55,772 bases of DNA from Elusimicrobiota bacterium (GTDB lineage Bacteria; Elusimicrobiota; Elusimicrobia; FEN-1173). Every line of letters starts with the position of its first letter. Position 1 is the stretch's first letter. Where the stretch lies: assembly GCA_022703335.1 (NCBI GenBank), contig JAKLDV010000002.1, positions 1-55,772 on the forward strand, read 5' to 3'. The position numbers were made by a program, and so were the translations under genes. Shown here piece after piece: positions 24,464-55,134 of this stretch. Below the pieces are notes generated by a model that was given only the letters and a program-made list of their open reading frames with translations, was not told where the DNA came from and made no database searches.

Positions 24464-24464
24464 G

Positions 24465-38700: not shown

Positions 38701-38910
38701 AGAAGTTTTCGGTCGTGGGACCCGCCTGGGAAAGGGCGTGCCGGGGGGCGGCCGGGCTCCGGGCGCGACGGGCTTTGTTCTTGTTGGCGGGGGCCTCTCG
38801 GCGGGTTTTGTGGACAGCCCCCGACGAGCTTTTAAAAATTTGCGATAATGTCGTCGGCTTGGAATAACTTGTCTTCAAGGAAGCTTCCCAGGAAAATGAT
38901 CGGATAGAGA

Positions 38911-40608
38911 ATGAAATCATTGGCTGCCCCCGCGTTTCATGCGATCACCGCCGCCGTCGGCGGCGCCTTTAGATATCTCAATCTCTTCGCGTTGAGGACG
39001 TCACGGGGTCATAAGGCCGCTCTTTTTGGCGCCCTGGTCTTGTTCCTCCTTTTTGCGTTGTGGGACTTGAAAAGCCCGGGCATCGGCCGTGACGAGGCCT
39101 CCATGGGCTACGCCGCCGCCGGCATCGATTTTCTGCACGCTTTAAAAAACCTCTCCTTTGAACGGCTTCCGTTGCAGTTCGACGGCCACCACGGCACTTG
39201 GATCGCCTACTCCGTCTACCCGTTTCTGAAAATCATATCCGATCCGGTCGTCGCCATGCGTCTGGCCATGGTCCTTTACAGTGTATTGACCTTGCTGTGT
39301 CTCTATCGGTTGGTGTTCGACCTTTATGGGGAGGGGGCCGCCCTGCTTTCTTTGTCGTTCCTCGCGTTTCATCCGGCCTTTTTGCTTATAACGCGGATGG
39401 GTGTCCGGGACGGGAACCTGCTTCTCCTCTTTTCCGTCCTTGCTGTCAGCTTTTTGATCCGTTGGTGGAAAGGCGGTCGAACAAAAGATTTTTTTCTCAT
39501 GTGTTTTACCCTGGGGCTTGGCCTGGGGACGCTGAGCTGGTTCATCTATTGGATGGCCGGGCTGTCGGCCACGCTCCTCTGTTTCGGGCGGGGTTTTTTC
39601 CGGAGGCTGATGGCAGCCTGGAAGAGCCATGTCCTCGGGGGCGGCGTCTGTTTTCTTTTGGGAGTGGGGCCCCTGTTCCTCGCCATGCTTTTTTCCGATC
39701 CCCCGTTTTTCCAGCCGATCGAATACCTGATTGTTTTGTGGTCGGGGCATTCCCAGGGAGTGGGGCTGTCTTCTCTGCTGGTTTTTCAGCCGCAGAGGAG
39801 TTTCGCCATTTTCCGCGCGGTTCTGGAGGGAGGGTATACCTTCCTGAGTTATTACTGGGACCTTTCGGTCGGCAATTTGAGGGGGTATTACACCTTGTTC
39901 CTCGTTTCGGCCGGATGGCTTGTGGCACGATCGGTTTTCCGGCGGCAACGCAGTTTTGAAACGGGGCTTCCCTTGGCGCTCGTCTGTCTGGTTTTTACCA
40001 CCCTGCTGTTTGCCTCGTTCGAGCCCTTGGGCGTGCATCCGGCGCATCTTCTTCCGATTCTGCCGTGGGCCGTTCTGATTTGCGCCATCGGAGTGCACGA
40101 TGTGTGCAAAGCGATCCCGAATGAGCCCGTGAAACGGTTGGTGATGGGGGTGGTTCCGGGCGTCGTGCTCGTCTCCGTTCTCTTTTTTGATGTCGAAGGA
40201 TACGTATACCTGCATAAGACGGGGGGCGGAACCGCCGACAATTCCGGGGCGGTCTATGATTTGGCCGTTTGGCTGAAAAAGAGAAATCCCCAAACGATCA
40301 TGGTGACGATTCGGGCGGTGGACAGGATAAAGTTCCTTGTCTCGCCGGCGGTGCAGCTCAAAGACATGGGGATTTATGTCGCCGCCACGGAGGAGGGTAC
40401 TTTCCAAAATCTGACAAAAATTTCAAAAAAAATCGACGTCTATGTGGCGCCCATCGGGAACCACAGCGGCAGTCCGGCGACCGATATGTTTTATTTGTTC
40501 AACAAGTGGAGGAAACAGCAAACTTCCCCCGTCATCCGCCTCAAGACCGTTTTCTATGATCGGCATGGTCGGCCGGCCTATCGTGTTTATGAACCTCAGC
40601 GATCGTAA
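38911..40608 (+). CDS. GT-C-fold (ArnT/PMT, GT39/83-like) polytopic membrane glycosyltransferase-like protein, paralog 1
   Basis: TM1 is followed by the loop 'WDLKSPGIGRDEASMG...IDF...LPLQFDGHHGTWIAYSVYPFLK'. There are 10 or more hydrophobic segments and a soluble C-terminal domain of about 170 aa ending 'HGRPAYRVYEP'. Confidence 0.65.
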   Translation: MKSLAAPAFHAITAAVGGAFRYLNLFALRTSRGHKAALFGALVLFLLFALWDLKSPGIGRDEASMGYAAAGIDFLHALKNLSFERLPLQFDGHHGTWIAYSVYPFLKIISDPVVAMRLAMVLYSVLTLLCLYRLVFDLYGEGAALLSLSFLAFHPAFLLITRMGVRDGNLLLLFSVLAVSFLIRWWKGGRTKDFFLMCFTLGLGLGTLSWFIYWMAGLSATLLCFGRGFFRRLMAAWKSHVLGGGVCFLLGVGPLFLAMLFSDPPFFQPIEYLIVLWSGHSQGVGLSSLLVFQPQRSFAIFRAVLEGGYTFLSYYWDLSVGNLRGYYTLFLVSAGWLVARSVFRRQRSFETGLPLALVCLVFTTLLFASFEPLGVHPAHLLPILPWAVLICAIGVHDVCKAIPNEPVKRLVMGVVPGVVLVSVLFFDVEGYVYLHKTGGGTADNSGAVYDLAVWLKKRNPQTIMVTIRAVDRIKFLVSPAVQLKDMGIYVAATEEGTFQNLTKISKKIDVYVAPIGNHSGSPATDMFYLFNKWRKQQTSPVIRLKTVFYDRHGRPAYRVYEPQRS

Positions 40609-40656
40609 AAGATCCGCCAAAAGAGAAAAAGCGCGCCGTTGCGGTGAGGAGCGCTC

Positions 40657-42339
40657 GTGACGCAGCAAGAGGCCCCGTCGCAGGCTCAAACATTTTTCCC
40701 GCCGCCCGACCGGGGGTGGGATCGCGCCCTTGTGTTCTTGTTGCTGGGGCTGTTCCTCGTTCTGGCCGTATGGGATTTGGAGAGCCCCGCGCTCCACCGG
40801 GATGAGGCGTTGATCGGACGTTTGGCGGCATCCATCGATTTCTCGCAGGCCCTCGAAACTTGGTCTTTTCGAACCCTGCCGCTGCAGGCCGACCAACATC
40901 ACGGCACGTGGATGGCGTATGCCGTGTATCCTTTTTTGAAGTTGTTCGGCGGCCAGCCCGTCGCGGTCCGGGTGGCGGGGGTGGTCTATGGTTTCCTCGG
41001 GTTGGCGGCCATGTTCTGTTTGACGCACCGTTTGTTCGGCCGCGCGCCGGCGCTTTTCTTTCTGCTCCTGCTGTCTCTCCATCCGTCCTTCCTGTGCACG
41101 ACGCGCCTCGGAATGATCGACGGTAATTTGATGTATCTTGTTTCCTTCGCGGCCCTGTTTTTTTTGTGGCGTTGGTGGACGGACGGGAGGTTCGGGCACT
41201 TCCTGTGGACGTGTTTTTTCCTGGGCATGGGGGTGGGGATCCTGAGCTGGTTTATATATGCGTTGGGGGCGTTGGGCGTGGCGATGTCGCTGAAGGCGCG
41301 CGGGGTCGCGGAACGGGTGGGCCGCCGGTGGCGGTGGTACCTCCTCGGCGGGGGAGTGAGTTTTTTGGCGGGGACGGGTCCCTTGTTCCTGGCGGTGCTG
41401 ACGGGGGAGATGTTGCCGGAGGCCACGCTGGATTATTTCATCGGTTTTTGGACGGCTCAGGGGGCCGGTTCTTTTTCTTCCGCTTTTTTCCTCGCGGAGA
41501 GGCTTCGGTCGTTCGTCAAGGTTTTGGGGGGAGGATACACTTATTTGAATCATTGGGGGCTTCCGTATGGTCAGGGGTTGGTTTATCCCGGTTTATTCCT
41601 CGTCGCCGTCGTCTGGATCCTTGCCACGGAGGTGGGGAATTTTAGACGACGGAGGGAAGCGGGGGTCCTGCCGGCGCTGATCGTTTTTCTTGCCGCCTAT
41701 CTGCTCCTCTCGAGTTTTGCGCCGTCGATGGCGAAGGAATTGCATCTTCTCCCGCTTCTGCCGCTGGCCGTTTTGATCACCGCCATCGGCTTGTGCGGGC
41801 TGTACGGGAAAATCACGCATCTTCCACTGAAGCGTTTGGCTTGGGGGGTGACGTGCGGCCTGGCGCTGCTTTCATCGGCCGGCGGAAATTTTTCCAATTA
41901 CGACTACCTCCGCCGGACGGGTGGCGAGTTCCGGTTTCAGTCCTGGGCTTTTTACGATCTGGCCGATTGGGTTCAGGCGCGGGGATACCGGCGCGTGGTG
42001 TCGGTCGCGCCCAGTCTGAACGTCAAATTGAAATTCATGGCTTCTTCGAAAATCGTTCCCGTGGACTTGGTTCTTACGGGACGACACACCGACCAGCAGA
42101 TTGTGAGCCGGCTCGATCGCTCGCGGGGTTGGGCGGATGCCTACATCGCCGGTTTTTGGTTCAAGGGAGAGGATCGTCTTCCGACGAAATTTCAATTGTT
42201 CAGTCGCTGGCGCAGGAAACAGGACCCGCCTCCGCGGCTGGTGGCGGTGTTCCACGAGCGCCAGGGCCGCCCGATTTATCTCGTGTATGAACCGCTTCGT
42301 CGGCCGGTAGTCAAAGACCTGAAGAAAAGAACGGAATAG
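40657..42339 (+). CDS. GT-C-fold membrane glycosyltransferase-like protein, paralog 2
   Basis: Same architecture: 'WDLESPALHRDEALIG...SIDF...LPLQADQHHGTWMAYAVYPFLK' and C-terminal 'HERQGRPIYLVYEP'. Confidence 0.65.
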   Translation: MTQQEAPSQAQTFFPPPDRGWDRALVFLLLGLFLVLAVWDLESPALHRDEALIGRLAASIDFSQALETWSFRTLPLQADQHHGTWMAYAVYPFLKLFGGQPVAVRVAGVVYGFLGLAAMFCLTHRLFGRAPALFFLLLLSLHPSFLCTTRLGMIDGNLMYLVSFAALFFLWRWWTDGRFGHFLWTCFFLGMGVGILSWFIYALGALGVAMSLKARGVAERVGRRWRWYLLGGGVSFLAGTGPLFLAVLTGEMLPEATLDYFIGFWTAQGAGSFSSAFFLAERLRSFVKVLGGGYTYLNHWGLPYGQGLVYPGLFLVAVVWILATEVGNFRRRREAGVLPALIVFLAAYLLLSSFAPSMAKELHLLPLLPLAVLITAIGLCGLYGKITHLPLKRLAWGVTCGLALLSSAGGNFSNYDYLRRTGGEFRFQSWAFYDLADWVQARGYRRVVSVAPSLNVKLKFMASSKIVPVDLVLTGRHTDQQIVSRLDRSRGWADAYIAGFWFKGEDRLPTKFQLFSRWRRKQDPPPRLVAVFHERQGRPIYLVYEPLRRPVVKDLKKRTE

Positions 42340-42341
42340 GC

Positions 42342-44018
42342 GTGCTGTTTCAGGCGAAAAAACTGGAAGAAAAGACGGACATGCCTGTCGGAGGCCGGGG
42401 CCTCTACCGTGCCATGGTGATCCTTTTCATGGGCCTCTACCTCGTCCTGGCTGTTTGGGATTTGGAGAGTCCCGGCATGGGAAGGGATGAGGCGCTGATG
42501 GGGCATTCGGCAAACTCCATTGATTTTGTCCGGGCGCTTAAAGAAAGATCGTTGCGGTTTCTTCCCCTGCAGTTCGACAACCATCACGGTCTGTGGATGG
42601 CTTACGCCATTTATCCTTTTTCGAAATTGCTGGGAGGTCACCCCATCTCGATCCGCCTGGCGGCCGTGTTCTATGGGTTTCTGGGGCTGTCGGCCATGTT
42701 TTATGTGACGTATCGGATATTTGGCCGCTTCGTGGCCTTGGTGACGCTGATTTTTTTATCTTGTCACCCGTCGTTTCTATGTGCGACCCGCATCGGCTTG
42801 CATGACCAAAATATCGTGCATTTGGCTGCTGCCGCGGCGGCTTTTTTCTTGTGGCGATGGTGGACGGAGGGAAAGACGAGCCAATTTTTTTTCTCGTGTT
42901 TTTTCCTCGGCATGGGAATGGGGATACAGACGTGGTTCATCTATTGGTTGGGGGCCCTGGCCGCGGTGGCGCTGTTGAACGCCGGAGAGGTTTGGAAGCG
43001 ACTGAAGGGGAGCTGGCGTCTTCATGTGTGGGGAGGGGCGGCAAGCTTTCTGGCCGGGACGGGGCCCCTTTTCCTTTCCTTCGTCACGGGGGCCATGCGC
43101 CCCGAGGACACCGTCGATTATTTCATTACGTTGTGGCTGACGTGCGGCTCCATTTCCCTCTCCGCCGCTTTTGTCATGCGGGAGAGGCTCGTTCTTTTTT
43201 TGAAAATGTTGGGGGGCGGATATACCTACCCCAACCATTGGGGTTTGCCTTACGACCAGGGTTGGGTTTATCCCGTCCTCTTTTCGGTGGGCGCATTATG
43301 GATCCTATGTGCGGCCGTTCGGAATCTGGCCAAAAGGCGAAGGGAAACGGTCTCGACAACGCCCCTTGTTTTCTTCGTCGCCTATTTGCTTTGCGCAAGT
43401 TTCGCGCCGGCTTGGCCGAAGGAGTGGCATCTCGGTCCGCTTTTGCCGGTGGCGCTTTTGGTCGCCGGCATCGGATTGTGCGATCTTTTCGGGAATATCC
43501 GCCGATTGCTCTGGAGGGGGGTGGCTTGGGGGGTGGTGTGTGTCTCGGTGTTCTTTTCTTCGGCCATGGGCAATTATGTCAACTATGATTACCTTCACCG
43601 GACCGGCGGGGAATTTCATATGTATTCCTGGGCCATTTACGATTTCGCTGATTGGCTCAGGACGCGCGGGCATACGTGGGTGGTGACGATGTCCCCCTAT
43701 CTTAATGTCAAATTGAGATACCTGGCATCGAGGAACATCCGCACCGTTGATCTGGGGTTTCGGATCGGTTGGACAGAGAAGGAAATTTTACGGCGGCTCG
43801 ACAGCCTGCGGTCGCGCGCGGATGTCTATGTGGCGACGTATTGGGCCGGAGACGAGGCCCCGTTTCCCACCCGGTTTCCCATGTTCAACCGTTGGCGCAT
43901 GAGACAAGACCCGCCCCTGCGGCTGGTGTCGGTGTTCCACGAGCGCCAGGGCCGTCCGATCTATCTCGTTTACGAACCGGAGAAAAGGCGGCGACCGGGC
44001 CGTCGCCCGCCAACGTGA
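42342..44018 (+). CDS. GT-C-fold membrane glycosyltransferase-like protein, paralog 3 (closest to paralog 2)
   Basis: GTG start 2 nt after the paralog 2 stop. 'WDLESPGMGRDEALMG...SIDF...LPLQFDNHHGLWMAYAIYPF' and C-terminal 'HERQGRPIYLVYEP'. Confidence 0.65.
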   Translation: MLFQAKKLEEKTDMPVGGRGLYRAMVILFMGLYLVLAVWDLESPGMGRDEALMGHSANSIDFVRALKERSLRFLPLQFDNHHGLWMAYAIYPFSKLLGGHPISIRLAAVFYGFLGLSAMFYVTYRIFGRFVALVTLIFLSCHPSFLCATRIGLHDQNIVHLAAAAAAFFLWRWWTEGKTSQFFFSCFFLGMGMGIQTWFIYWLGALAAVALLNAGEVWKRLKGSWRLHVWGGAASFLAGTGPLFLSFVTGAMRPEDTVDYFITLWLTCGSISLSAAFVMRERLVLFLKMLGGGYTYPNHWGLPYDQGWVYPVLFSVGALWILCAAVRNLAKRRRETVSTTPLVFFVAYLLCASFAPAWPKEWHLGPLLPVALLVAGIGLCDLFGNIRRLLWRGVAWGVVCVSVFFSSAMGNYVNYDYLHRTGGEFHMYSWAIYDFADWLRTRGHTWVVTMSPYLNVKLRYLASRNIRTVDLGFRIGWTEKEILRRLDSLRSRADVYVATYWAGDEAPFPTRFPMFNRWRMRQDPPLRLVSVFHERQGRPIYLVYEPEKRRRPGRRPPT

Positions 44019-44109
44019 GTCGTCGGTCGGCCGTCCCTTATTCGGGCCCGGTTGTTTTTGGGGGGGCGTGTCCCCGGAGACGTTTCGTCCGGCCCGAAAA
44101 AGCGAATTT

Positions 44110-45621
44110 ATGTCGAAAATCCTTCTGATCAATCCGGCCTATGCCGACGTCTATGGGGCTTCCAAGGCGGGCCTTGTGAGGCACATCATCCCCACCCTGG
44201 GACTCGCGACGATTGCGGCCGACGCCGTCCGTCGGGGGCACAGGGTCAAGATATTGGACATGAGTGATTCTTTTTATGATTGGACGAAAGTCCAGCGGGT
44301 CGTTCGGGAGTTCGGCCCGGACGTGGTGGGGATTTCGGCCACCACACCCCTCATGAACCAGCTTCGGGATCTGTCGGTCCTGTGCCGGGACATTTCGAAG
44401 GACATTCTTTTGGTCGGCGGCGGGGCGCATGTTTCCGCTCTCCCGGAGCGGAGCCTGGAGGAATCTTTTTTGGACGTCGTTGTGGCGGGGGAGGGGGACA
44501 TCGTTTTCGGCCGGATATGCGACGGTGACTCCTTTACGGATCGGCCGGGGCTTTGTCGGCGGCTCGAACGTGGGACGGTGGTCGGGGCCGGGGAGGGGGG
44601 GCCGCTGGAGAATTTGGATGACCTGCCCATGCCGGCGTGGCATTTGTACGATCCCGCCGCCTATCGGGCGAAGACAAGCCGGCTCATCGTCCGGTGTCCT
44701 CCCTGCCTGGAACTGGAATTTTCCAGGGGCTGCGCGTACGATTGCCATTTCTGCGCCTCAAAAAAAATTCATCCGCTCGGCCACAGAAAAAAATCATCCA
44801 AACGGTGCGCGGAAGAAGTGAAAACGGCCGAAAGGATGGGGTGGCGGGAGTTCGTCCTGGCCGACGATATTTTCACGTCGAACCGGGAATGGGCGTTGAG
44901 CGTCTGCGAAGAATTGATACGATCGGAAACGTCGGTCCGCTGGTCCTGTTTGAACGGCATCCGGGTGGATTCGGCCGACCTGCCGCTTTTCCGGACAATG
45001 CGCCGCGCCGGATGTTACCGGCTCGCCTTTGGGTTTGAGACGGGCAACGAACAGAGGCTGCGGGCGTCGGGAAAGGGCGGTCGGGCTTCCCTGGAAGCGG
45101 GCCGGCGGGCCGTCCGTTGGGCCCGCGAGGCCGGGATGGAGACGTGCGGGTATTTTCTTATCGGACTGGACGGCGATACGAAGGAGACGGTGGAAGACAC
45201 CATCGCGTATGCGTGTTCTCTGGGACTCGACATGCTCAAGTTCGGCGTGGCCATGCCTTTCCCGGGGTCGGCTCTTTTTGACGCTTATCTGGCCCGCGGC
45301 GCGATCCGTTCTTTTGATTGGGATGCGTATAACACGTACGCCAACCTCCAGCCCTTTGAACATTCCTCGTTGAGCCGGGAAGAGATCGGTTTTCTCATGG
45401 GAAAGGCCTACCGGGAAACGGTCGGCTTGAACCCGGCTTTCTGGTTCCGCCGTTTGAGGCGCGGGCTGGGAACGGGGGATATCTTTTGGGACCCGTATTA
45501 TTTTTTAAAATTCCTATTTTCCCCGGCGCTCAACACGTCGAGGAAAGAGGCGTACTACGCCCGGCCCCGTTGGCCGCAGCCGGAACATGCGGCGGGGCGT
45601 AGGGATCGGGGAGTTCATTGA
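44110..45621 (+). CDS. B12-binding-domain radical SAM protein (class B) 1
   Basis: N-terminal Rossmann-like 'KILLINPAY...GLATIAADAVRRGHRVKILD...VVGISATTP'. Radical SAM cluster motif 'SRGCAYDCHFC' (CxxxCxxC). Confidence 0.85.
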   Translation: MSKILLINPAYADVYGASKAGLVRHIIPTLGLATIAADAVRRGHRVKILDMSDSFYDWTKVQRVVREFGPDVVGISATTPLMNQLRDLSVLCRDISKDILLVGGGAHVSALPERSLEESFLDVVVAGEGDIVFGRICDGDSFTDRPGLCRRLERGTVVGAGEGGPLENLDDLPMPAWHLYDPAAYRAKTSRLIVRCPPCLELEFSRGCAYDCHFCASKKIHPLGHRKKSSKRCAEEVKTAERMGWREFVLADDIFTSNREWALSVCEELIRSETSVRWSCLNGIRVDSADLPLFRTMRRAGCYRLAFGFETGNEQRLRASGKGGRASLEAGRRAVRWAREAGMETCGYFLIGLDGDTKETVEDTIAYACSLGLDMLKFGVAMPFPGSALFDAYLARGAIRSFDWDAYNTYANLQPFEHSSLSREEIGFLMGKAYRETVGLNPAFWFRRLRRGLGTGDIFWDPYYFLKFLFSPALNTSRKEAYYARPRWPQPEHAAGRRDRGVH

Positions 45622-47345
45622 TGGGAGAGCCGGGAACTTCGGGGTCGGACGCCGATCGGAGCGGAGAAGTCTTGTCTCCCTCGTCGTCCCACTTTTCCCG
45701 ATTTCTGCACGGAGCCGCGTTGGCGCTGTGCCTCGGCGCGTTCCTGGTTTTGGCTTTTTGGGACTTGAAAAGTCCCGGGTTGGACCGGAACGAGGCGTGG
45801 ATGGGGATGACGGCGGCGTCCATCGACTTCGTTCAGGCGATGAAGGAGGGTTCCTTCCGGTCTCTTCCCCTGCATTTCGATGAGCATCACGGGACCTGGC
45901 TCGCCTACGCCGTCTACCCGTTTTTGAAAATCATGAGGGGCTCGTCGTCGGCCTTGCGCGTTTCCATGGTGTTCTACAGTTTCCTGGCGTTGATCGGCAT
46001 CTACTATTTGGCCAGAAAATCGTACGGAAAGACAGCCGCCCTCTTCGCCCTGTTCCTCGTCGCACTCCATCCGTCCTATCTTGTCATCACCCGTTTGGGA
46101 GCCGCGGACGGCAGCCCGCTGTTCCTGCTCTCGGCGTTGATGTTCATCTTCCTTCGGCGTTGGCAACAGACGGGGCGGGGACGGGATTTTTTGTTGATCT
46201 GTTTTTTTTACGGGTTGGGCGTGGGGACGATATTCTGGTTCGTTTTTTGGGGCGGCGGTTTGGCGGTCGTCTTGCTTTTGTCCGGGCGGGAGGCCTGGAA
46301 CCGCTCCGGCCGCGGTCTGGGATGGCATATGGCCTGGGGAGGCGTGTGTTTCTTGGCGGGGATGGGCCCCTTGACGCTGGCGTGCGCCACGGGGAATCTC
46401 CCGCTCGATAAAGTCGTCGATTACTATGTGGATTTTGCGCATCGTGTCGCTCCGGCCGGGGACTACTCGCTGGCGTCCGTTTTTTTCTGGAGGGAACGGT
46501 GGCGCACCTTCTGGATGACGTTGGGCGGCGAATACACGTACATCCGCTATGGGGCCTCTCCGAACGTCAACGCATGGATTTACAACGCATTGTTTGTCGC
46601 CGCTGTGGCTTGGTCCGTCGGCCGCTATCTCGGGGATCTTAAAAAGGGGGCAAGGAGGGGCTTTGCGGTCGATCTCGTCCTGTTGACGGTCGTCTATGTC
46701 GTGTCCGCGACATTTTCGCCCACCAGCTTGCGGGCGCGGCACGTTTTTCCGGTTCTCCCGTGGGCGCTGTTCGTTTCCGCCGCCGGGTTCGCCGACCTCT
46801 GCGGGCGGCTTAAAAATATTTTGTGGCGGCGGGCGGCCTGGGCGGCGGCGGCGGGCCTGGTGATCCTTTCGGCGGCGAGATGCCATTACGCGAACTACTT
46901 CTATCTTTCCAGGACCGGCGGGGGGACGAGCCTGAACTCGGGGGCCGTCTATGAATTGGCGGAATGGGTGCGTGCGCGTGGATACGGACGCGTGATGGTG
47001 GGGCCGCCTTGGATGCGCGCCAAACTTCGTTTTTTGGCTTCGCCGACAATACGCACGTCGGTTTCTGTGTTGGCGGAGGAACCCTGGACGCCTCGGCTTG
47101 CGAAGAAGTGCGAGGAACATCGCCGGGAGACAGACGCCTACATCATCCCTTTCTGGAACGACAAAGAGGAGCGTCAGTCCAACATTTTCAAGAAGTTCAA
47201 CCGGTGGGCGCGTCGGCAGAAACCGGCCATTTCCCTGGTGAAGGTTCTGCATGAGCGGAACGGCCGGCCCGCCTATCTTGTGTATGAGCCGTTGGACTCG
47301 GCAAAGGCCCCTCTCCTCGAGAGCGCGCCGGAGGGAAAACGATGA
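45621..47345 (+). CDS. GT-C-fold membrane glycosyltransferase-like protein, paralog 4 (loop motif RNEA instead of RDEA)
   Basis: The ATG overlaps the radical SAM stop (TGATG). 'WDLKSPGLDRNEAWMG...SIDF...LPLHFDEHHGTWLAYAVYPFLK' and C-terminal 'HERNGRPAYLVYEP'. Confidence 0.65.
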   Translation: MGEPGTSGSDADRSGEVLSPSSSHFSRFLHGAALALCLGAFLVLAFWDLKSPGLDRNEAWMGMTAASIDFVQAMKEGSFRSLPLHFDEHHGTWLAYAVYPFLKIMRGSSSALRVSMVFYSFLALIGIYYLARKSYGKTAALFALFLVALHPSYLVITRLGAADGSPLFLLSALMFIFLRRWQQTGRGRDFLLICFFYGLGVGTIFWFVFWGGGLAVVLLLSGREAWNRSGRGLGWHMAWGGVCFLAGMGPLTLACATGNLPLDKVVDYYVDFAHRVAPAGDYSLASVFFWRERWRTFWMTLGGEYTYIRYGASPNVNAWIYNALFVAAVAWSVGRYLGDLKKGARRGFAVDLVLLTVVYVVSATFSPTSLRARHVFPVLPWALFVSAAGFADLCGRLKNILWRRAAWAAAAGLVILSAARCHYANYFYLSRTGGGTSLNSGAVYELAEWVRARGYGRVMVGPPWMRAKLRFLASPTIRTSVSVLAEEPWTPRLAKKCEEHRRETDAYIIPFWNDKEERQSNIFKKFNRWARRQKPAISLVKVLHERNGRPAYLVYEPLDSAKAPLLESAPEGKR

Positions 47346-47376
47346 GACGCGGCCGACGGCGGGCGTAGAGGATCCG

Positions 47377-48807
47377 GTGCCTGAAAAAAAAATCCTTTTG
47401 GTGAATCCCCCGTCTCGACGGCCCACCTTGCGCGATTTGTATTGTTCGATGACGCCGCGGGGAGGTTACAACTGGGCGCCCGTGGATCTTTTGGTCCTCA
47501 GCGCTCTTTTGAAAGAGCGGCATGATCTGGCGGTGTTGGACGCCGTGGCCGAGGGGATTTCGTTTGAGGCCGCCCTGGTCCGCGCCGCGGCGTTCCGCCC
47601 CCGGGGGATCGTTTCCCTCGTCGGTTCCGTCACGTTGGAAGACGACCTGGGCTGGCTGCAATCACTGAAACAGAAAACGTCGGCCCCGGTCCTTATCCTG
47701 GGGAACATTTCACTGGACCCGGACCACAAGGTGTTGCACGACCATCCGTGGATCGACGGCCTGATTCAAGACGGCGCCGGTCCCGAGCTGGCCGACTATT
47801 TTGACGGGGACCCGGCCGGCACGAGGGAATACCAAGGTCTTGTTTTTCGGCGGAACGGACAAATCCGGAAGAGCCCCTCTCCCGCGAGACAATCGACGGC
47901 AACGCTCGCCTATCCCCCGCCGCGGCACGACTTGTTCCCGCTGCACCGCTACCGCGTCCCATGGATGGGGGCGGGAAAGACGACGTCCATGTTGGCAAGT
48001 TACGGTTGTGTTTTCTCCTGCGGTTATTGCGTGCACAGACGGGAAAGCATCGCCCCGCGGTTGCGGCCGATCGACGACGTGTTGCGGGAACTGGATTCCC
48101 TGCGGGACCTCGGAGTGAAGAACATTTATTTCAGGGATCCGATTTTCGCCGGCACCCGGGAGAACGCCCTGGCGCTGACGTCGGCCATGGGAAAGAGGAA
48201 CTACCCGTTTTCATGGGCGGGCAGTTTGCGCATCGAAACGTCCAGCGGGGAGTTGTTGGGGGCGATGCGGGCGGCCGGATGCCGATGGGTGGCGGTCGGC
48301 ATCGAATCGGCCAATGCCGACGTGTTGGAGAAGTATCGGAAGCCCCTCCCGTTGGAGCAGATCAAAAGTTTCATCCGTCAATGCCATGCGGCCGGACTTC
48401 TGGCGGCGGGCTATTTCATCCTGGGCCTGCCCGGCGAGGACGTGCGGTCCGTTCGGGAGACCATCGATTTCGCCGTCGCGTCGGAGCTGGATTTCGCCAC
48501 GTTCACCGTCCCCGTGCCGGATTACGGCACGACTTTTCGGAAAGAAGCCGAAAATACGGAGACCGGGAACGGGGGGGAACCGTTTGACCGGGGAAATCCG
48601 CGCCGCGGCTTGAGGACGACCATTTCGGAAGAAGAGTATCGGGGCCTTTTCAAGGAGGCCTACCGTCGCATGTATTTCAGGCCGTCCTATGTGTTCCGAA
48701 TGGCGTGCCGGCTTCGGGGGGTGGGAGAGTGGCGCGGTGCGTTTGCCCACGCCGGTCGGCTTTTTTGGGATGTGTGGCGGGGAGGAGGGGAGGTTAGGAA
48801 GCGCTGA
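47377..48807 (+). CDS. B12-binding-domain radical SAM protein (class B) 2
   Basis: GTG 47377 gives 'PEKKILLVNPPS', parallel to the N-terminus of radical SAM 1. Cluster motif 'SYGCVFSCGYC'. 'VAVGIESAN' is a TIM-barrel block. Confidence 0.8.
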   Translation: MPEKKILLVNPPSRRPTLRDLYCSMTPRGGYNWAPVDLLVLSALLKERHDLAVLDAVAEGISFEAALVRAAAFRPRGIVSLVGSVTLEDDLGWLQSLKQKTSAPVLILGNISLDPDHKVLHDHPWIDGLIQDGAGPELADYFDGDPAGTREYQGLVFRRNGQIRKSPSPARQSTATLAYPPPRHDLFPLHRYRVPWMGAGKTTSMLASYGCVFSCGYCVHRRESIAPRLRPIDDVLRELDSLRDLGVKNIYFRDPIFAGTRENALALTSAMGKRNYPFSWAGSLRIETSSGELLGAMRAAGCRWVAVGIESANADVLEKYRKPLPLEQIKSFIRQCHAAGLLAAGYFILGLPGEDVRSVRETIDFAVASELDFATFTVPVPDYGTTFRKEAENTETGNGGEPFDRGNPRRGLRTTISEEEYRGLFKEAYRRMYFRPSYVFRMACRLRGVGEWRGAFAHAGRLFWDVWRGGGEVRKR

Positions 48808-49780
48808 TCAGCAGGACGATGACCGACGCCGTCCAAAGGAGCACCGCCGCCAGGATGGGACCGTCTCGAAGCAGGTCGGTCACCGGATCCTCGCCGCGGC
48901 CGCGGCGATACACCAGAGAAAGATAACGGAACAGACCGAACATCACCATCGGCACGGTAAAAACCAGAGACCGGGTCTTGTGAAGGGTCACCGTGCCCGG
49001 CGCCACGGTGTACAGGGTATAGGCCAGCGCGGTCCCGACGGCGACGACCCCGATCGCCTTGTCCAGGTGATCGACGGTGTAATGGGCCAGCGGTTTTCGA
49101 GCGGAGGCCGGCTGAAAAGCCAGTTCGGCCCGCCGTTTGGCCAGCGCAAGGAAGAGCGTGAGCAATAGGCCGCAGAGGAGGAGCCAAGGGGAGGGGGCGA
49201 TGCCCACCCCCATCGTGCCGGCGGCCAGCCGCAACATGAATCCCGCGACGACGAGGAGCACATCCAAGACGACGATGTGCTTGAGCCCGAGGGAATAAGC
49301 CACGTTTAAGACGGCGTACGCCGAGACGATGACAAGGATTTTGGGCCCGGCCGCGGCCGCCAACGCCAACCCGCCGAGCAGACAGAGGGCCGCGATGCCC
49401 GCCGCCGCTTTGGGCGACAGGGTCCCTGCCGGCAAGGGGCGGCGATGTTTTTTCGGATGCGTCCGATCCACCGCCACATCCAGCAGGTCGTTCAGCGCAT
49501 AAACGAAACTGGCCATAAGACAGAACGCCGCAAAGGATTCCGCCACCCGGAGCACCAGGGGGATGTCCCGCCAGGAGTGCGCGAAGATCAGGCCGGCGAA
49601 AACAAAACTGTTTTTGAGCCAGTGAGAGGGCCGAAGGAGGACGAGCCAGGGCGGGAGACGGGACAGGAGAGGCGCGGCGGGTTGTTCCACGGGGTGCTCG
49701 GGGATGGCGGGCGTATTCACCGCGGGTTCCCCCATGGGATTTTTTGGATTGGGATACAGACGTGTTTTTTCCGGCGGCAT
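48794..49780 (-). CDS. UbiA-family polyprenyl-phosphate phosphoribosyltransferase (decaprenyl-phosphate 5-phosphoribosyltransferase-like)
   Basis: 'LRPSHWLKNSFVFAGLIF' and 'YALNDLLDVAVDRTHPKKHRRPLPAG' (NDxxDxxxD plus the basic patch), with 8-9 TM segments. This is the Rv3806c-type layout. Confidence 0.75.
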   Translation of the reverse strand: MPPEKTRLYPNPKNPMGEPAVNTPAIPEHPVEQPAAPLLSRLPPWLVLLRPSHWLKNSFVFAGLIFAHSWRDIPLVLRVAESFAAFCLMASFVYALNDLLDVAVDRTHPKKHRRPLPAGTLSPKAAAGIAALCLLGGLALAAAAGPKILVIVSAYAVLNVAYSLGLKHIVVLDVLLVVAGFMLRLAAGTMGVGIAPSPWLLLCGLLLTLFLALAKRRAELAFQPASARKPLAHYTVDHLDKAIGVVAVGTALAYTLYTVAPGTVTLHKTRSLVFTVPMVMFGLFRYLSLVYRRGRGEDPVTDLLRDGPILAAVLLWTASVIVLLISAS

Positions 49781-49906: not shown

Positions 49907-50365
49907 CTATCCCTGACGCGGGACACTCGCGCGCTCCAAGGCCTTCGGAAGCTTCATGACGAATCTTTTGATCTCGTCGCGCACTCGCCGATAGTGAGAG
50001 AGGGCCTCTTCCGGCGACCGGGCGTTCGCCGCCAGCCGGGGAGGGTCGTTAAATCCAACGTGAAGCACTCGGGTTTTCCCGGGGAAAAGGGGACAGTGTT
50101 CCTGGGCGTGCCCGCAGACCGTCACCACGTAATCGAACGCGATCCCTTCCAGGTCCCGCACGTTCTTGGGCCGCTGTCCGGCGATATCCACCCCGGCTTC
50201 CGTCATGACCTCCACCGCCCGGGGATCCATCCCGTGAATTTCAATGCCGGCGGAATACGGTTCGATCTCGGCGCCCTTTAAATGGCGCGCCCACCCTTCC
50301 GCCATCTGGCTCCGGCAGGAATTGCCCGTGCAGAGGAAAAGGATCTTGGTTTTCGACGGGTTCAT
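49907..50365 (-). CDS. arsC: Arsenate reductase, LMW-PTPase/thioredoxin-coupled type
   Basis: 'KILFLCTGNSCRSQMAEGW' P-loop with downstream Cys ('VTVCGHAQEHCP'). ATGA overlap with the upstream gene. Confidence 0.85.
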   Translation of the reverse strand: MNPSKTKILFLCTGNSCRSQMAEGWARHLKGAEIEPYSAGIEIHGMDPRAVEVMTEAGVDIAGQRPKNVRDLEGIAFDYVVTVCGHAQEHCPLFPGKTRVLHVGFNDPPRLAANARSPEEALSHYRRVRDEIKRFVMKLPKALERASVPRQG

Positions 50366-51054
50366 GGACCGTTTCGGATGGTCGTGATGGCCATATAAGC
50401 GCCGGCCAGGATGAAGATTCCCGCGGTGGCCCATCGCGCCCAACGCTCGATGCCGCTGAGTCGGTTGTAGGCCTTTCCCAGCGCCCCGCCGCCAAAGGCC
50501 AGGGCCACCGCCACGACGACGGCCGGGATGGCCGTTCCCGCGCCATAAACGGTCGGAAGAAGTGCGATGGAGTTATGCTTCACAGCCAAGGGAATCAAAC
50601 TCCCGAAAAAAAGAGCCGCCGACACGGGGCATAATGACAACGCGAACAAAAAGCCCATGGGGGCCGCGCCCCACAGGCCGCCGCGGTCGACACACCGTTG
50701 AACAAGAGCGCTGAATCGGCCGCCGCCCGAGAAAGAAAAGCGTTCCGCAAAGACCAAAAAAAGACCGGTCAGAACGAGAAGCGGCCCCAGAAGTTGGCCC
50801 ATGCGTCTTTGCAGGAAGAACGAAACGCCTGGGATGGAGAGAAGGCCAAAAACCACGACCGCGCAGAGCATCAGATAGGCGAGCGCGCGTCCGATGGTAT
50901 AAAGAAGCCCGGCCCACAGGACATGGCGGGGGTGCCCCACGAGCCTTCCTATATAGGCCACCGCCGTTACGTTGGCGGCCAGGGGGCAGGGGCTCAACGA
51001 AGTCAGGATCCCCAGCCACAGGGCCGTCGCCCAACTTACAGGGAAAGCATCCAT
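50362..51054 (-). CDS. CcdA/DsbD-family transmembrane thiol-disulfide electron transporter
   Basis: 'LGILTSLSPCPL' in TM1 and a second 'FALSLCPV' motif. About 6 TM segments in 230 aa. Confidence 0.7.
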   Translation of the reverse strand: MDAFPVSWATALWLGILTSLSPCPLAANVTAVAYIGRLVGHPRHVLWAGLLYTIGRALAYLMLCAVVVFGLLSIPGVSFFLQRRMGQLLGPLLVLTGLFLVFAERFSFSGGGRFSALVQRCVDRGGLWGAAPMGFLFALSLCPVSAALFFGSLIPLAVKHNSIALLPTVYGAGTAIPAVVVAVALAFGGGALGKAYNRLSGIERWARWATAGIFILAGAYMAITTIRNGP

Positions 51055-51566
51055 CAACTTCTTTTCAGATAGGAACGCACTTCGTCCTCCACATACCGCC
51101 GGTAGGCGTCTTCGTTCCGCACCTTCTCCCAGATCTTGTCCAGGTTTTTCCAGGTGATTTCTTCCCCGTCGCTGGTTTCGGAGAGCACGACGGATTTCGT
51201 GTAAAGAGCGTAGTCCTTGATGAAATGCGCGTTCCCGGGGTCGTCCACGTTCACCACGCGGTATTCCACCCGCCCCTGTTTGACTTCTTCCTCGAATCGC
51301 GTGTCCATGAGTTCTTTCGTCAGGGTTTCGAATTTGCGACAGGTCATGCACCGGGCGTTCCCGTGGAAATAATAAACGATCAGTTTCCGCGGTTCAGTCT
51401 TTGCCGGGCTGTTTTTCGTTGAGGGTTTCGGGGATTTCCGTGACACCGGACTCGCCCCTGAAACGGGGGAGGCCGCCACTCCCAGAACGAGAGAAACCCA
51501 AAGGAGCCCCCGGAGTGATTTTATGGGCAACATGAGGAACCTCCCGCGCGGCCGCCGGGGCGGCAC
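51054..51566 (-). CDS. Exported thioredoxin-fold CxxC protein (start 51566 or 51533)
   Basis: Signal/anchor 'LRGLLWVSLVLGVAASPVSG', then 'LIVYYFHGNARCMTCRKFE' (CxxC after a beta-strand). Family not named with confidence. Confidence 0.55.
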   Translation of the reverse strand: MPPRRPRGRFLMLPIKSLRGLLWVSLVLGVAASPVSGASPVSRKSPKPSTKNSPAKTEPRKLIVYYFHGNARCMTCRKFETLTKELMDTRFEEEVKQGRVEYRVVNVDDPGNAHFIKDYALYTKSVVLSETSDGEEITWKNLDKIWEKVRNEDAYRRYVEDEVRSYLKRS

Positions 51567-51937
51567 TTGAGAAAAGATTTCGCTTTTTCGGCGACCCGCT
51601 TCACGCGCTCCGGCGTCGCCGGGGATTTCCCTTTTTCAAGCCCCGCGTCGGTCACGCGCATGTGCTGGAACCGCGTCACGCCGGCCTGCTCCATCGTGTT
51701 CTTGGCGCAGTCCAACGGACAACCGTCGATGAGCAAAACGGCGTCCGCGCCTTTCGCCGAAGCCAGAAAACCGCTCAGCCGTCCTCCAATGCCCGCCAAG
51801 CAGGACATTTTCCCGATCCCTTCGCGGGACAAGACCCGGGCGGCCCTGTCGGCGATCTCTCCGGTGTCCGCCGCCCCGGAACAGGGGTAGATCAGCACCG
51901 TGCCCCCGCCGCACCCACAAGAAGATTTTTCTGCCAT
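51521..51937 (-). CDS. DGC-domain putative zinc-binding protein
   Basis: 'CGCGGGTVLIYPCSGAADTGEIADRAAR' and 'VLLIDGCPLDCA' (the DGC motif). Confidence 0.7.
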   Translation of the reverse strand: MAEKSSCGCGGGTVLIYPCSGAADTGEIADRAARVLSREGIGKMSCLAGIGGRLSGFLASAKGADAVLLIDGCPLDCAKNTMEQAGVTRFQHMRVTDAGLEKGKSPATPERVKRVAEKAKSFLKCRPGGRAGGSSCCP

Positions 51938-51946
51938 GAGCGTCTC

Positions 51947-52180
51947 CTATCTCAACAGGTTTTTTATTTCATCAAGGGACGGCAGGCGCCCCGCCGTTTT
52001 GACCGTCCCATCGACCGCCAGCGCGGGCGTCGTCATCACGCCGAAATTCAGGATCTCGTTGATGTCGGTCACTTTTTCCAGGGAATATTCAATGCCCAAT
52101 TCCTTGGCGGCCGCCTCGGAAAGCTCCGTCAGCTTCTTGCATTTGGGACAACCCGTTCCCAGGATTTGGATTTTTTTCAT
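51947..52180 (-). CDS. Small thioredoxin-family protein (redox-active disulfide protein 2 type)
   Basis: 'MKKIQILGTGCPKCKKL...TPALAVDG', 77 aa. Start at ATG 52180 within the longer track ORF. Confidence 0.85.
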   Translation of the reverse strand: MKKIQILGTGCPKCKKLTELSEAAAKELGIEYSLEKVTDINEILNFGVMTTPALAVDGTVKTAGRLPSLDEIKNLLR

Positions 52181-52194
52181 GGGTCCTCCGTCGC

Positions 52195-53175
52195 TCACAG
52201 GATCGCGTTGAACAAAAAGCCCATCGCCATGATGCCGATGATCGTTATGCCGAAAAAGAGCCCCAAGAGCGGCCACCGCATCACTTTCTTGAGAATCAGC
52301 GCTTCCGGGATGGAAATCGTGACGATGGAGGTCATGAAAGTGAGCGCGGTCCCGAGGGGCACGCCTTTGCCCACCAGGGCCTCCATGACCGGAAGAACGC
52401 TGACCGAATTGGCGTAGAAGGGCGCGCCGAGAAGGGTCACCAGGGGGATGCTCCACCACGTTTTCGCCGAGAAATATCGTTCAACGAAGCCCCGGGGTAC
52501 AAAACCGTGGATGAAAGCCCCGATGCCGACCCCCAGCACCATGTAAGGGAAAATCTGTTTGGTGATGGCCATCCCCTCCCGCCAAAAGAGGGAAGCCGTC
52601 CGTCTTAAAGACAAGGGGCCGCCGCCGTGTTCCCGTTCGACCTCTTCCCGGGACTTGATCTTCAACAGGTCCGGCAACACGTAATGTCCAACGTCGAGCT
52701 TCTGGATCAGCAGGCCGCCCGCCACCGCCACGGCGATGCCGAACAGGTTGTAGAACAGGGTGACCCTGAGGCCGAACAGGGCGGGAAAAAGGTAGAGCGA
52801 CGATTCGTTGATGAGGGGCGAACTGATCAGGAAAGAGAACGTCACTCCCAAGGGGATCCCCGCCCCCAGAAATCCGATGAAAAGGGGAATGGACGAGCAG
52901 GAACAGAACGGCGTCACCACGCCCAGAAGCGCCGCGAACAGGTAATCCAAGCCATACCAGCGCCTTTTGGCGAGGATGTTCCGCGTCTTTTCCAGGGGAA
53001 AGTAATACCGGACGATCGCCATGACGTCGTTGATGACGACGAGCAGAAGGCCGATCTTAATCGTGTCATAGATGAAAAAATGCGTCGTCTTCGCCGCGTA
53101 GGAAGAAGGCGCAAAATGAAGCCACTGGTGGGTGGCGATATCCGCGAACAGCTCGATGGGTTTGAATGGATCCAT
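52195..53175 (-). CDS. Permease of the ArsP/DUF318 family (candidate organoarsenical efflux permease)
   Basis: 'GVVTPFCSCSSIPLFIGFLGAGIPLG' with vicinal Cys in a TM helix. Polytopic, 326 aa. Shows the typical pairing with the small thioredoxin gene. Confidence 0.7.
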   Translation of the reverse strand: MDPFKPIELFADIATHQWLHFAPSSYAAKTTHFFIYDTIKIGLLLVVINDVMAIVRYYFPLEKTRNILAKRRWYGLDYLFAALLGVVTPFCSCSSIPLFIGFLGAGIPLGVTFSFLISSPLINESSLYLFPALFGLRVTLFYNLFGIAVAVAGGLLIQKLDVGHYVLPDLLKIKSREEVEREHGGGPLSLRRTASLFWREGMAITKQIFPYMVLGVGIGAFIHGFVPRGFVERYFSAKTWWSIPLVTLLGAPFYANSVSVLPVMEALVGKGVPLGTALTFMTSIVTISIPEALILKKVMRWPLLGLFFGITIIGIMAMGFLFNAIL

Positions 53176-53191
53176 GGACGGTCCGGCGCCC

Positions 53192-54007
53192 TTATTTTTT
53201 GGCCGTCAGGTTGAGGCTGGTCACGAAATCGCTCGGTTTTGTCCCCGGCGGTAGTTTGTCGGCGATATCCCGGTAGAGAGGGTCCGACCATTCGCTCATC
53301 TTGTCGATGTAATCCGATTTGGTTTCGAGAACGACGTTTTTGAGGCCGGCGGCCTGGACCATCGCCTTCGTCTCATCGAGGAGGACCGCGCCGGCGATGC
53401 ATCCCACAAGGGCCTGCACGGAGGAACGGACGCTTTCGGGCAGCGGGCGCCGGAGGGCCAGGTCGGAGACGGCGACCCGTCCGCCCGGCTTGAGCACGCG
53501 CGCCACTTCCCGCCACACGCGGGCTTTGTCCGTGGAGAGGTTGATGACGCAGTTGGAGATCACCACGTCCACGCTGGAATCCTCCACGGGCAGATGCTCG
53601 ATCTCGCCCAAGCGGAACTCGGCGTTGGAGAGCCCGGTCGATCGGCCGAAAGAAACCGCGTTCCGGCGCGCTTTGGCGACCATCTCCGGCGTCATGTCGA
53701 CGCCGATCACGCGCCCCGTCGGCCCCACCTTCCGCGCCGCGATGAACACGTCGAACCCGCCGCCCGCCCCCAGGTCGAGGACGACCTCGCCCGGCCGCAG
53801 GGAGGCCACCGCGGTGGGGTTTCCGCAGGAAAGGCCCATGTTCGCCCCGTCGGGGAGGCCGGCCCGTTCGCCGTCGTCGTAACCCACGGCCTCCGCGACG
53901 TCGTCGGCGGAAGGCCCGCCGCAACAGGACGACGTCCCGCAACAGGAACCGCCCTGTCGGGCGATCTTGCCGTAGGCTTCCCGCACCTTCGTCCGTGTTT
54001 CATCCAT
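53192..54007 (-). CDS. arsM: Arsenite S-adenosylmethionine methyltransferase
   Basis: N-terminal Cys cluster '[13 protein letters not shown]', SAM motif '[13 protein letters not shown]', and a third conserved Cys region 'VISNCVINL'. Confidence 0.85.
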
Positions 54008-55079
54008 GACGGTTCTGCCCCTCGATCGATGTGTGGAAATACTTTTTCTGGAAATAGAGGGAGACGTTCACCAGCCCGATGAGGGCGGGCACCTCCACCA
54101 GGGGGCCGATCACCGCCGCGAAAGCCGCCCCGGAGTTGATGCCGAACACCGCCACCGCCACCGCGATGGCCAGCTCGAAATTGTTGCTGGCCGCCGTGAA
54201 GGACAGCGTGGCCGATTTCCGGTAGTCCGCCCCGACTTTTTTGCCCATCCAGAAGCTCACCAGGAACATCACCACGAAATAGATGAGCAGGGGGATCGCG
54301 ATCCGGACAACGTCCAACGGGATGCGGACGATCATTTCACCTTTCAGGCTGAACATGACGACGATCGTGAAAAGGAGGGCGGTCAGCGTGATCGGGCTGA
54401 TTTTGGGGATGAACGTCTTCTCATACCATTCCTTCCCCCCGATCTTGAGCCCGACGATCCGGGTCGCAACGCCCGCGATGAAGGGAATCCCCAGGTAAAT
54501 AAAGACGCTTTCGGCGATCTGCCCCATGCTCACCTGCACCATGCTGCCTTTCAGCCCGAACAGGGGCGGCAACACCGTGATGAAGACATAGGCGTAGGCG
54601 CTGTAAAAAAGGACCTGGAACACGCTGTTGAAAGCCACCAGCCCGGCGGCATATTCCGTGTCCCCCTTGGCCAACTCGTTCCATACGATGACCATGGCGA
54701 TGCACCGCGCCAAACCGATCATGATGAGGCCCACCATGTATTCCGGGTAGTTTCGAAGAAACACAATCGCCAAAACGAACATCAACACCGGGCCGACGAC
54801 CCAGTTTTGCACCAGGGAGAGGCCCAGCACTTTCCAATTGCGGAACACGTCGCCCATTTCCTCGTATTTCACCTTGGCCAGGGGCGGGTACATCATCAGG
54901 ATGAGCCCCGCCGCGATGGGGATGTTGGTCGTGCCGATCTGGAACAGATTGATGAACCGTTCGATGCCGGACACGAAATAGCCCAGGAAGACGCCCGCGC
55001 CCATGCCCAGGAATATCCACAGGGTCAGGTATCGGTCCAGAAAGGAAAGTTTCTTCACAACGCTTTCAGAAGGATTCAC
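54000..55079 (-). CDS. acr3: ACR3-family arsenite efflux transporter
   Basis: '[22 protein letters not shown]', 'RCIAMV' and 10 TM segments. GTG 55079 is preceded by GGAGG. The upstream part of the track ORF overlaps arsR. Confidence 0.85.
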
Positions 55080-55100
55080 GGAGGCCTCCGAGGATATATT

Positions 55101-55118: not shown

Positions 55119-55134
55119 TAGAAGGACAAAAAAA

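Follow-up and report, generated by a model that had tools for sequence, protein, structure and literature searches.

An array of GT-C glycosyltransferase paralogues and radical SAM enzymes beside a phosphoribosyltransferase gene in an Elusimicrobiota bacterium: a candidate envelope-glycan locus

Enzymes of the GT-C fold use polyprenyl-phosphate-linked sugar donors at the outer face of the membrane, and extracytoplasmic glycosylation from lipid-linked monosaccharides is a general way of diversifying surface glycans, as in the Arn, Gtr and mycobacterial arabinan pathways and in the pentofuranose systems described in 2024. To our knowledge, the donor is tailored in every known case by conventional redox, deformylase or epimerase enzymes. 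Here we analyse a stretch of 55,772 nt from an Elusimicrobiota bacterium (contig JAKLDV010000002.1, positions 1-55,772, forward strand; hereafter the window), in which four genes for GT-C-like membrane proteins (P1-P4) are interleaved with two genes for radical S-adenosylmethionine (SAM) enzymes (rSAM1 and rSAM2) and meet a gene for a UbiA-family phosphoribosyltransferase (PRTase). An earlier note, made from the letters of the DNA alone, had proposed that these genes form a lipid-linked pentofuranose polymerisation or decoration system. Our results show that GT-C plus radical SAM is a recurrent and conserved neighbourhood in unrelated metagenomic lineages, and that the locus probably builds a chemically modified sugar structure of the cell surface.

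GT-C systems fed by a polyprenyl-phosphoribose synthase (PPPRS) are already established (Kelly et al. 2024, PMC11127046), and the nearest described framework for our locus is that of the three-component pentofuranose systems, which consist of a PPPRS, a flippase and a GT-C transferase of family GT136 (Citrobacter youngae O1/O2; PMC11127046). In those systems, as in the window, a UbiA-type PRTase adjoins a GT-C transferase with an extra C-terminal extracytoplasmic domain, and the concept includes auxiliary enzymes that diversify the lipid-linked pentose. The window locus differs from them in that it lacks a PRP phosphatase domain, a flippase of the MATE or SMR type and an epimerase of the NAD or FAD type, and in carrying four PMT_2/GT39-like GT-C paralogues where they have one GT136 enzyme. 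Moreover, two radical SAM genes are embedded in our array, while the PRTase gene is convergent to it and this linkage is not conserved in other lineages.

The mycobacterial arabinan pathway (Rv3806c, the decaprenylphosphoryl-5-phosphoribose synthase; Rv3807c; DprE1/E2; Emb/Aft) offers a second comparison. The contacts of Rv3806c with phosphoribosyl pyrophosphate (PRPP) are kept in the UbiA protein of the window, and both systems have several paralogous GT-C enzymes, suggesting stepwise extracytoplasmic assembly. However, the window holds neither DprE1/E2 nor a PAP2 phosphatase; its GT-C proteins are ArnT-like and about 560 aa long, as opposed to about 1,050 aa for Emb and about 620 aa for AftA; and the closest GT-C relatives with a named source come from metagenome-assembled genomes (MAGs) of Elusimicrobiota and Omnitrophota, not from actinobacteria.

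Structurally closest are the ArnT/Gtr-type systems, composed of an ArnC or GtrB enzyme of family GT2, a flippase and a GT-C transferase, and loci related to ours do carry GtrB/ArnC/DPMS-like GT2 genes. In the Arn pathway, cytoplasmic ArnD likewise tailors the lipid-linked sugar before flipping, whereas the candidate tailoring enzymes of our locus are radical SAM proteins and the predicted donor synthase in the window is a PRTase rather than a GT2. With the B12-domain radical SAM enzymes that act on sugars or lipid-linked sugars (HpnJ, AprD4 and GenK-type methylases), rSAM1 and rSAM2 have in common a CxxxCxxC core and an N-terminal Rossmann/B12-like domain, which is weak in rSAM2, but they score 4- to 5-fold below the cut-offs of these families. 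A literature search returned no paper in the library covered that links radical SAM enzymes with GT-C transferases, PMT_2, Omnitrophota or polyprenyl-phosphate sugars, in concordance with the earlier note, which knew of no characterised pathway combining GT-C paralogues with B12-type radical SAM enzymes. The novelty of the locus lies in its conserved radical SAM partners; the combination of PRTase and GT-C and the logic of periplasmic glycosylation are already familiar.

Recurrence of the GT-C and radical SAM neighbourhood

Word-indexed protein searches with P1 and with the alignment of the four paralogues returned P1 alone, and scans of GTDB genomes with GT-C alignments gave no match. The family was found by an exhaustive HMMER profile search, which yielded 514 representatives at E<1e-10, most of them full-length and including the C-terminal domain. 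Among relatives with a named source, the closest belongs to a MAG of Elusimicrobiota and a further one to a MAG of Omnitrophota; NCBI calls both 'glycosyltransferase family 39 protein', an automatic name.

When genomic contexts were anchored on these GT-C relatives, four of the six lineages had a B12-type radical SAM gene no more than 10 kb away. In locus L005, the GT-C gene is followed directly by an orthologue of rSAM2 (41% identity over the full length, 336 bits), and at a distance of 8 kb there is a homologue of rSAM1 (31% identity). The Omnitrophota loci L006/L007 present two GT-C genes and then a B12-type radical SAM gene, with an rSAM1 homologue in L006. In L012, a GT-C gene comes directly after an orthologue of rSAM2 (364 bits), and two further GT-C genes are present; L014 combines GT-C genes with several B12-type and other radical SAM genes. 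A second survey was anchored on rSAM2 and also took in two 5-kb contigs that are too short to judge. Here, L077 has a radical SAM gene directly followed by a PMT/PMT_2 GT-C gene, and L079 has two radical SAM genes among GT-C, GT2 and GT4 genes, a GDSL gene and an epimerase gene.

Across these contexts, full-length rSAM2 orthologues of 31-41% identity adjoin a GT-C gene in L005, L012 and L077, rSAM1 homologues occur within the GT-C clusters of L005, L006 and L079, and the pairing of GT-C with radical SAM is present in at least six independent metagenomic lineages. The clusters share further companions: GDSL/SGNH proteins, often with TPR repeats, and small GT2 proteins. One of the latter was compared with solved structures, and its best relatives, GtrB, DPMS and ArnC, all synthesise polyprenyl-phosphate sugars. 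Related clusters nearly always carry such a GT2 and not a UbiA gene; the cluster in the window, which has no GT2, is the sole such case among the clusters examined on long contigs. Genes for T2SSG pseudopilin-like proteins lie inside the clusters of L012 and L014.

Some of these loci show additional features. L014, which is part of a 189-kb metagenomic contig, represents a much enlarged version of the neighbourhood: nine consecutive radical SAM genes (13619-21734, the ninth leaving the stretch examined) comprise B12-type, SPASM-type and short forms and stand beside GT-C, GDSL, GT2 and pseudopilin-like genes. Genes for Fe-S/flavin electron-transfer proteins are found beside GT-C or radical SAM genes in L005 (8655-9995, RnfC-like) and L079 (2214-3503, FrhB/FdhB-like). 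It is possible that these proteins serve as reductant partners for the radical SAM enzymes; the cluster in the window contains no Fe-S/flavin electron-transfer gene.

The array and its proteins

The six genes of the array lie on the + strand between 38911 and 48807, in the order GT-C, GT-C, GT-C, radical SAM, GT-C, radical SAM, according to the table of open reading frames (ORFs) (Table 1). They are separated by 48 nt (P1-P2), 2 nt (P2-P3), 91 nt (P3-rSAM1) and 31 nt (P4-rSAM2), and the stop codon of rSAM1 overlaps the start codon of P4 in the sequence TGATG (45619-45623). The gaps of 91 and 31 nt hold if rSAM1 is taken from ATG 44110 and rSAM2 from GTG 47377, starts whose N-termini (MSKILLINP and PEKKILLVNP, respectively) were picked by homology. 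The UbiA gene converges on the array, and its 3' end overlaps that of rSAM2 by 14 nt (48794-48807). The gene order, the spacings and both overlaps given in the earlier note are all reproduced by these coordinates. A scan for promoters and terminators found nothing above chance, with one promoter site in 12.2 kb against 3.3 expected. We rejected a reading of the locus as one for a ribosomally synthesised and post-translationally modified peptide, as gaps of at most 91 nt leave no space for a precursor ORF.

Table 1 Features of the GT-C/radical SAM locus and its immediate surroundings (positions in the window).
Feature	Position	Strand	Remarks
Sigma-70-like promoter match	38811-38839	+	sole one in the region, weak evidence; 72 nt upstream of P1
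P1, predicted ArnT-like GT-C glycosyltransferase with C-terminal alpha/beta domain	38911-40608	+	565 aa; PMT_2 E 6e-11
P2, predicted GT-C paralogue	40657-42339	+	560 aa; PMT_2 E 1.1e-9
P3, predicted GT-C paralogue	42342-44018	+	558 aa; PMT_2 E 2.5e-9
rSAM1, B12-binding-domain radical SAM enzyme	44110-45621	+	503 aa from ATG 44110; longest ORF from 44068
P4, predicted GT-C paralogue, RNEA motif	45621-47345	+	574 aa; PMT_2 E 4.9e-11; longest ORF from 45618
rSAM2, radical SAM enzyme with weak B12-like N-terminal domain	47377-48807	+	476 aa from GTG 47377; longest ORF from 47251
UbiA-family polyprenyl-phosphate phosphoribosyltransferase (predicted)	48794-49780	-	328 aa; NF008977 249.9 bits

P1-P4 align end to end with pairwise identities of 37-56% (40% for P1-P2 and 56% for P2-P3). 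According to hydropathy, they are polytopic to about residue 430; the alignment includes a soluble C-terminal domain of about 120 aa, which closes with a conserved 'ERxGRPxYLVYEP' stretch. All four score above the gathering score of the Pfam family PMT_2, while the PF02366 (PMT) model has no match in any of them; the generic PMT_2 is the only matching model. A profile hidden Markov model (HMM) of the paralogues found no GT-C enzyme among the PDB sequences, ArnT included.

The kinship emerged only from a comparison of folds, for which the structure of P1 was predicted. An AlphaFold (AF2) model built from 150 family members reached a predicted local distance difference test (pLDDT) score of 89.7 and a predicted template modelling (pTM) score of 0.91; a model from the four paralogues only (pLDDT 48) was discarded. 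In a Foldseek search of the PDB, the first 37 matches of the P1 model, each with a probability of 1.00, are exclusively GT-C enzymes, as are all 30 matches at E<=1e-3. They include STT3, ArnT, ALG9/12, AglB, DPY19, EmbB, PglB, Pmt4, AftA and PimE. The top TM-score belongs to ArnT (5f15; TMq 0.61, TMt 0.63, over the whole length), whereas TM-scores to Emb are 0.4. Based on the PMT_2 matches and the Foldseek matches of the model, we assign P1-P4 to the GT-C fold as predicted ArnT-like transferases. The GT-C nature that the earlier note had read from the layout of these proteins of about 560 aa is thereby upheld, and the R-[D/N]-E-A motif and common C-terminal domain that it described are present in all four.

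This motif lies in the first external loop, after the first transmembrane segment, and reads RDEA in P1-P3 (residues 60-63 in P1) and RNEA in P4. Position 61 is acidic in 141 of the 150 family members (D in 126, E in 15); a single member, P4 itself, has N there. Position 62 is E in 120. By analogy with other GT-C enzymes, the first-loop D/E of P1-P3 is inferred to be catalytic or metal-binding. Because the conserved Asp is replaced in P4, this protein may be catalytically altered or a non-catalytic partner. P4, the Asn-bearing paralogue, is also the one directly preceding rSAM2. P1-P4 form one clade relative to family members elsewhere, and the array therefore reflects a local tandem expansion.

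Of the two radical SAM proteins, rSAM1 matches both the B12-binding (PF02310, E 3e-18) and the Radical_SAM (PF04055, E 3e-19) families and carries the CxxxCxxC motif as CAYDCHFC. rSAM2 likewise matches Radical_SAM (E 6e-17; motif CVFSCGYC), but its B12-binding match stays below threshold (PF02310, E 0.09), although some homologues of rSAM2 carry a precomputed PF02310 match. The best PDB match of both is AprD4, a sugar diol-dehydratase (E 1.4e-23 for rSAM2), followed by the methylase QCMT. The earlier note had counted two B12-radical SAM enzymes; this holds for rSAM1 and is no more than likely for rSAM2.

The best NCBIfam match of both proteins is HpnJ, with 150.6 bits for rSAM1 and 120.9 bits for rSAM2 against a cut-off of 577.6, and against the best named relatives, HpnJ, BchE, PhpK and AprD4, the scores are 4 to 5 times lower than the curated cut-offs require. 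The lipid-biosynthesis B12-radical SAM model TIGR04072 also scores, below its cut-off. Because all scores fall so far short, rSAM1 and rSAM2 belong to unnamed radical SAM subfamilies that are marked by adjacency to GT-C genes. Neither protein shows a hydrophobic segment in its hydropathy profile, and both are therefore predicted to be cytoplasmic.

The phosphoribosyltransferase and competing readings of the locus

The UbiA protein exceeds the cut-off of NF008977, the NCBIfam equivalog model for decaprenyl-phosphate phosphoribosyltransferase (249.9 bits, cut-off 234), while quinone, haem and chlorophyll prenyltransferase models, which represent UbiA proteins other than PRTases, give at most 50 bits. 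Its best PDB match is Mycobacterium tuberculosis Rv3806c (8j8j, E 1.1e-26), with digeranylgeranylglyceryl phosphate (DGGGP) synthase at E 1e-6. We mapped the PRPP/Mg contact residues of Rv3806c (PMC10994848) through the PDB-match alignment and found ten of twelve identical: R22, K28, Y70, N73, D77, K87, R90, Y138, K143 and K208. At the other two positions, Q135 is replaced by N and Y157 by F; the latter exchange is a natural variant in some mycobacteria. This match is a discriminating test, because ordinary UbiA prenyltransferases do not conserve the residues that bind phosphoribose (PMC10994848). A Pfam scan of the UbiA protein found no extra domain, including a PRP phosphatase domain. By these sequence comparisons, the protein groups with polyprenyl-phosphate phosphoribosyltransferases and not with quinone or haem prenyltransferases, in agreement with the identity that the earlier note had given it.

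Whether the PRTase is part of the system was addressed with its relatives. A metagenome scan with the UbiA protein returned 62 loci (29-51% identity), whose six-frame ORFs were searched with the GT-C family HMM, rSAM1 and rSAM2. In L059/L060, a full-length GT-C family member (14182-15927, 434 bits to the family HMM) lies 3.3 kb from the UbiA-PRTase gene; it is inserted between atpG and atpD, the genes for ATP synthase gamma and beta, and is not in the operon of UbiA. A second UbiA gene is also found near the GT-C gene in these loci. The three-way combination of GT-C, radical SAM and PRTase is specific to this organism and is not conserved. Of the gene set on which the earlier note had built its proposal, the part made of GT-C and radical SAM recurs, and the full set of GT-C array, radical SAM and UbiA-PRTase does not.

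The reading that we prefer, tentatively and at slightly less than even confidence, is that the locus represents a recurrent extracytoplasmic glycosylation module of uncultured bacteria, in a version that is specific to its lineage and expanded in tandem, with a PRTase as donor synthase and radical SAM enzymes for tailoring. The PRTase would make polyprenyl-P-ribofuranose-5-P at the cytoplasmic face and would fill the donor-synthase slot that a GtrB/ArnC-like GT2 holds in related clusters. Both radical SAM enzymes would then tailor the lipid-linked sugar in the cytoplasm, ahead of its export, with C-methylation, deoxygenation, epimerisation and ring rearrangement among the possible reactions; their position in the pathway would be analogous to that of DprE1/E2, ORF13 or ArnD. 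Once the sugar or sugars have been flipped, P1-P4 would attach them step by step to an envelope acceptor, and the genes for a 5-phosphatase and a flippase would have to lie in another part of the genome. The pentofuranose polymerisation and radical epimerisation put forward in the earlier note are hypotheses.

One extension of this scheme is more specific and, in our view, rather unlikely. In anaerobic, non-actinobacterial lineages, the radical SAM enzymes would replace the flavin- or NAD-dependent epimerases (DprE1/E2, ORF13) and convert polyprenyl-P-ribofuranose (polyprenyl-P-hexoses in the sister clusters) into new donors without O2, through epimerisation, deoxygenation, C-methylation or ring contraction. 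On the outer side of the membrane, a set of ArnT-like GT-C paralogues would polymerise or attach the resulting sugars.

Several observations weigh against the preferred reading of a glycosylation module with its own PRTase. The UbiA gene is not co-transcribed with the array because of its convergent orientation, and a string of arsenic resistance (ars) genes on its own strand ends 126 nt upstream of it. Only L059/L060, a single lineage, hold a family GT-C gene within 10 kb among the 62 UbiA loci, and homologues of rSAM1 or rSAM2 occur in none of the 62. Three loci of UbiA relatives were sampled (L021, L030 and L048), and the gene immediately downstream of UbiA was scanned in the first two. A DUF362 gene directly follows UbiA in L021 (10911-12038) and L030 (10875-12164), which come from different metagenomes and whose UbiA proteins are 41-44% identical to that of the window; in L048 a gene of the same size stands at this place (10874-12154). 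We know of no function for the pairing of UbiA with DUF362. As for the pathway itself, the Pfam scan found no 5-phosphatase (PAP2, HAD) and no acceptor-synthesis gene in the window, nor a flippase (MATE, SMR, GtrA) among the ORFs scanned, and the absent phosphatase and flippase are weaknesses of the model. With respect to the reaction type, neither rSAM1 nor rSAM2 reaches the cut-off of any named NCBIfam family, and rSAM2 may not bind cobalamin, in view of its sub-threshold B12 match and its kinship to AprD4, which is described as not binding cobalamin (2026 review). Finally, two GT-C family loci are without a radical SAM gene, both on contigs of 8-9 kb.

The points that concern the PRTase favour an alternative which we consider less probable than the preferred reading and still a serious contender: the GT-C/radical SAM operon is a genuine glycosylation module, and the UbiA PRTase is a chance neighbour from another pathway, the donor being a polyprenyl-P-hexose or similar compound supplied by a GT2 encoded elsewhere. 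Convergent orientation behind the ars genes on its own strand, the loose co-occurrence with GT-C in L059/L060 as the sole echo of the combination among the 62 UbiA loci, the DUF362 gene behind UbiA in two of the three related loci sampled and the GtrB/ArnC-like GT2 genes of related GT-C/radical SAM clusters all fit this explanation. On the other hand, the one long-contig cluster that has no GT2 is the one that abuts a donor synthase, the 14-nt overlap of UbiA and rSAM2 shows tight packing, and a functional pairing of PRTase with GT-C is already established (PMC11127046). We regard the membership of the UbiA PRTase in the GT-C/radical SAM system as roughly evenly balanced, and we favour its inclusion because the GT2-less long-context cluster is exactly the one next to a lipid-sugar donor synthase.

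Two further explanations were considered. In the first, which we consider improbable, the radical SAM enzymes act on the acceptor, so that a membrane lipid is modified and then glycosylated or processed by the GT-C proteins. HpnJ, HpnR, ladderane-type enzymes and calditol synthase are known to modify membrane lipids; HpnJ as best NCBIfam match, the score with TIGR04072 and the membrane association of all partners are consistent with such a role. However, the scores of both radical SAM proteins lie far under every cut-off, and neither the window nor the related loci hold hopanoid, ether-lipid or polyketide genes, the related loci carrying instead GT2, GT4, NTP-transferase, epimerase and Wzy-like genes. 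Least probable of all is protein glycosylation in the style of PMT or TfpW, with the GT-C enzymes acting on secreted or pilin-like proteins and the radical SAM enzymes modifying the protein or the glycan: the GT39 label that NCBI gives to the relatives (the protein O-mannosyltransferase family), the pseudopilin-like genes of L012 and L014 and the arabinosylation of pilin by Pseudomonas aeruginosa TfpW with a PRTase-derived donor (PMC11127046) speak for it, but neither the operon, whose gaps do not exceed 91 nt, nor its immediate surroundings contain a gene for a pilin-like protein or a small precursor, and the top TM-score is to ArnT, a lipid A transferase, and not to Pmt.

Flanking genes and significance

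The 467-aa ORF directly upstream of P1 (37297-38700, +) was rejected as a member of the system. It encodes a bacterial homologue of Endonuclease Q (EndoQ), an archaeal enzyme, with E 9e-46 to the Pyrococcus EndoQ structures. On the other side, a compact cluster for arsenic resistance and methylation (49907-55289, -) lies immediately upstream of UbiA on the same strand and encodes a thioredoxin-type ArsC-like protein, an ArsG permease, a DGC-domain protein, ArsP, ArsM and Acr3. A low-molecular-weight phosphatase beside UbiA is an unlikely candidate for the missing 5-phosphatase, as its best matches are arsenate reductases and its gene lies inside the ArsG/ArsP/ArsM/Acr3 cluster. The Pfam scan of the window ORFs also found no DprE1/DprE2-like gene, whose absence the earlier note had correctly reported, and no other glycan gene.

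The remainder of the window consists of housekeeping genes and an integrase/Prim-Pol element. The first 4,600 nt (1-4600) have a G+C content of 0.50-0.53, compared with about 0.61 elsewhere, and encode a DUF5131 protein, a Prim-Pol primase and a tyrosine integrase; this segment is probably an integrated mobile element at the window edge. A subtilase gene (18001-20936, -) whose product has a C-terminal sorting domain of the FlgD_ig/CHU_C type stands beside a gene for a weak PorV-like protein, a possible sign of type IX secretion in this organism. Three large ORFs of 343, 554 and 725 aa (21133-26591) have no Pfam match at E<=0.01.

The conserved pairing of GT-C with B12-type radical SAM suggests that lipid-linked sugars, or else their acceptors, undergo radical chemistry. 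The seven-gene locus described here is a concrete, clonable test case. It would give a function to about 500 'GT39-like' representatives as well as to both of the unnamed radical SAM subfamilies, and might bring envelope structures of uncultured phyla to light. Should the link to the PRTase be true, polyprenyl-phosphoribose-based glycan synthesis would extend to anaerobes without DprE1/E2. If, in addition, radical SAM enzymes do take the place of the epimerases, this would be the first radical SAM chemistry on polyprenyl-phosphate sugar carriers and would indicate an unrecognised class of envelope glycan in bacteria of the Elusimicrobiota and Omnitrophota type.

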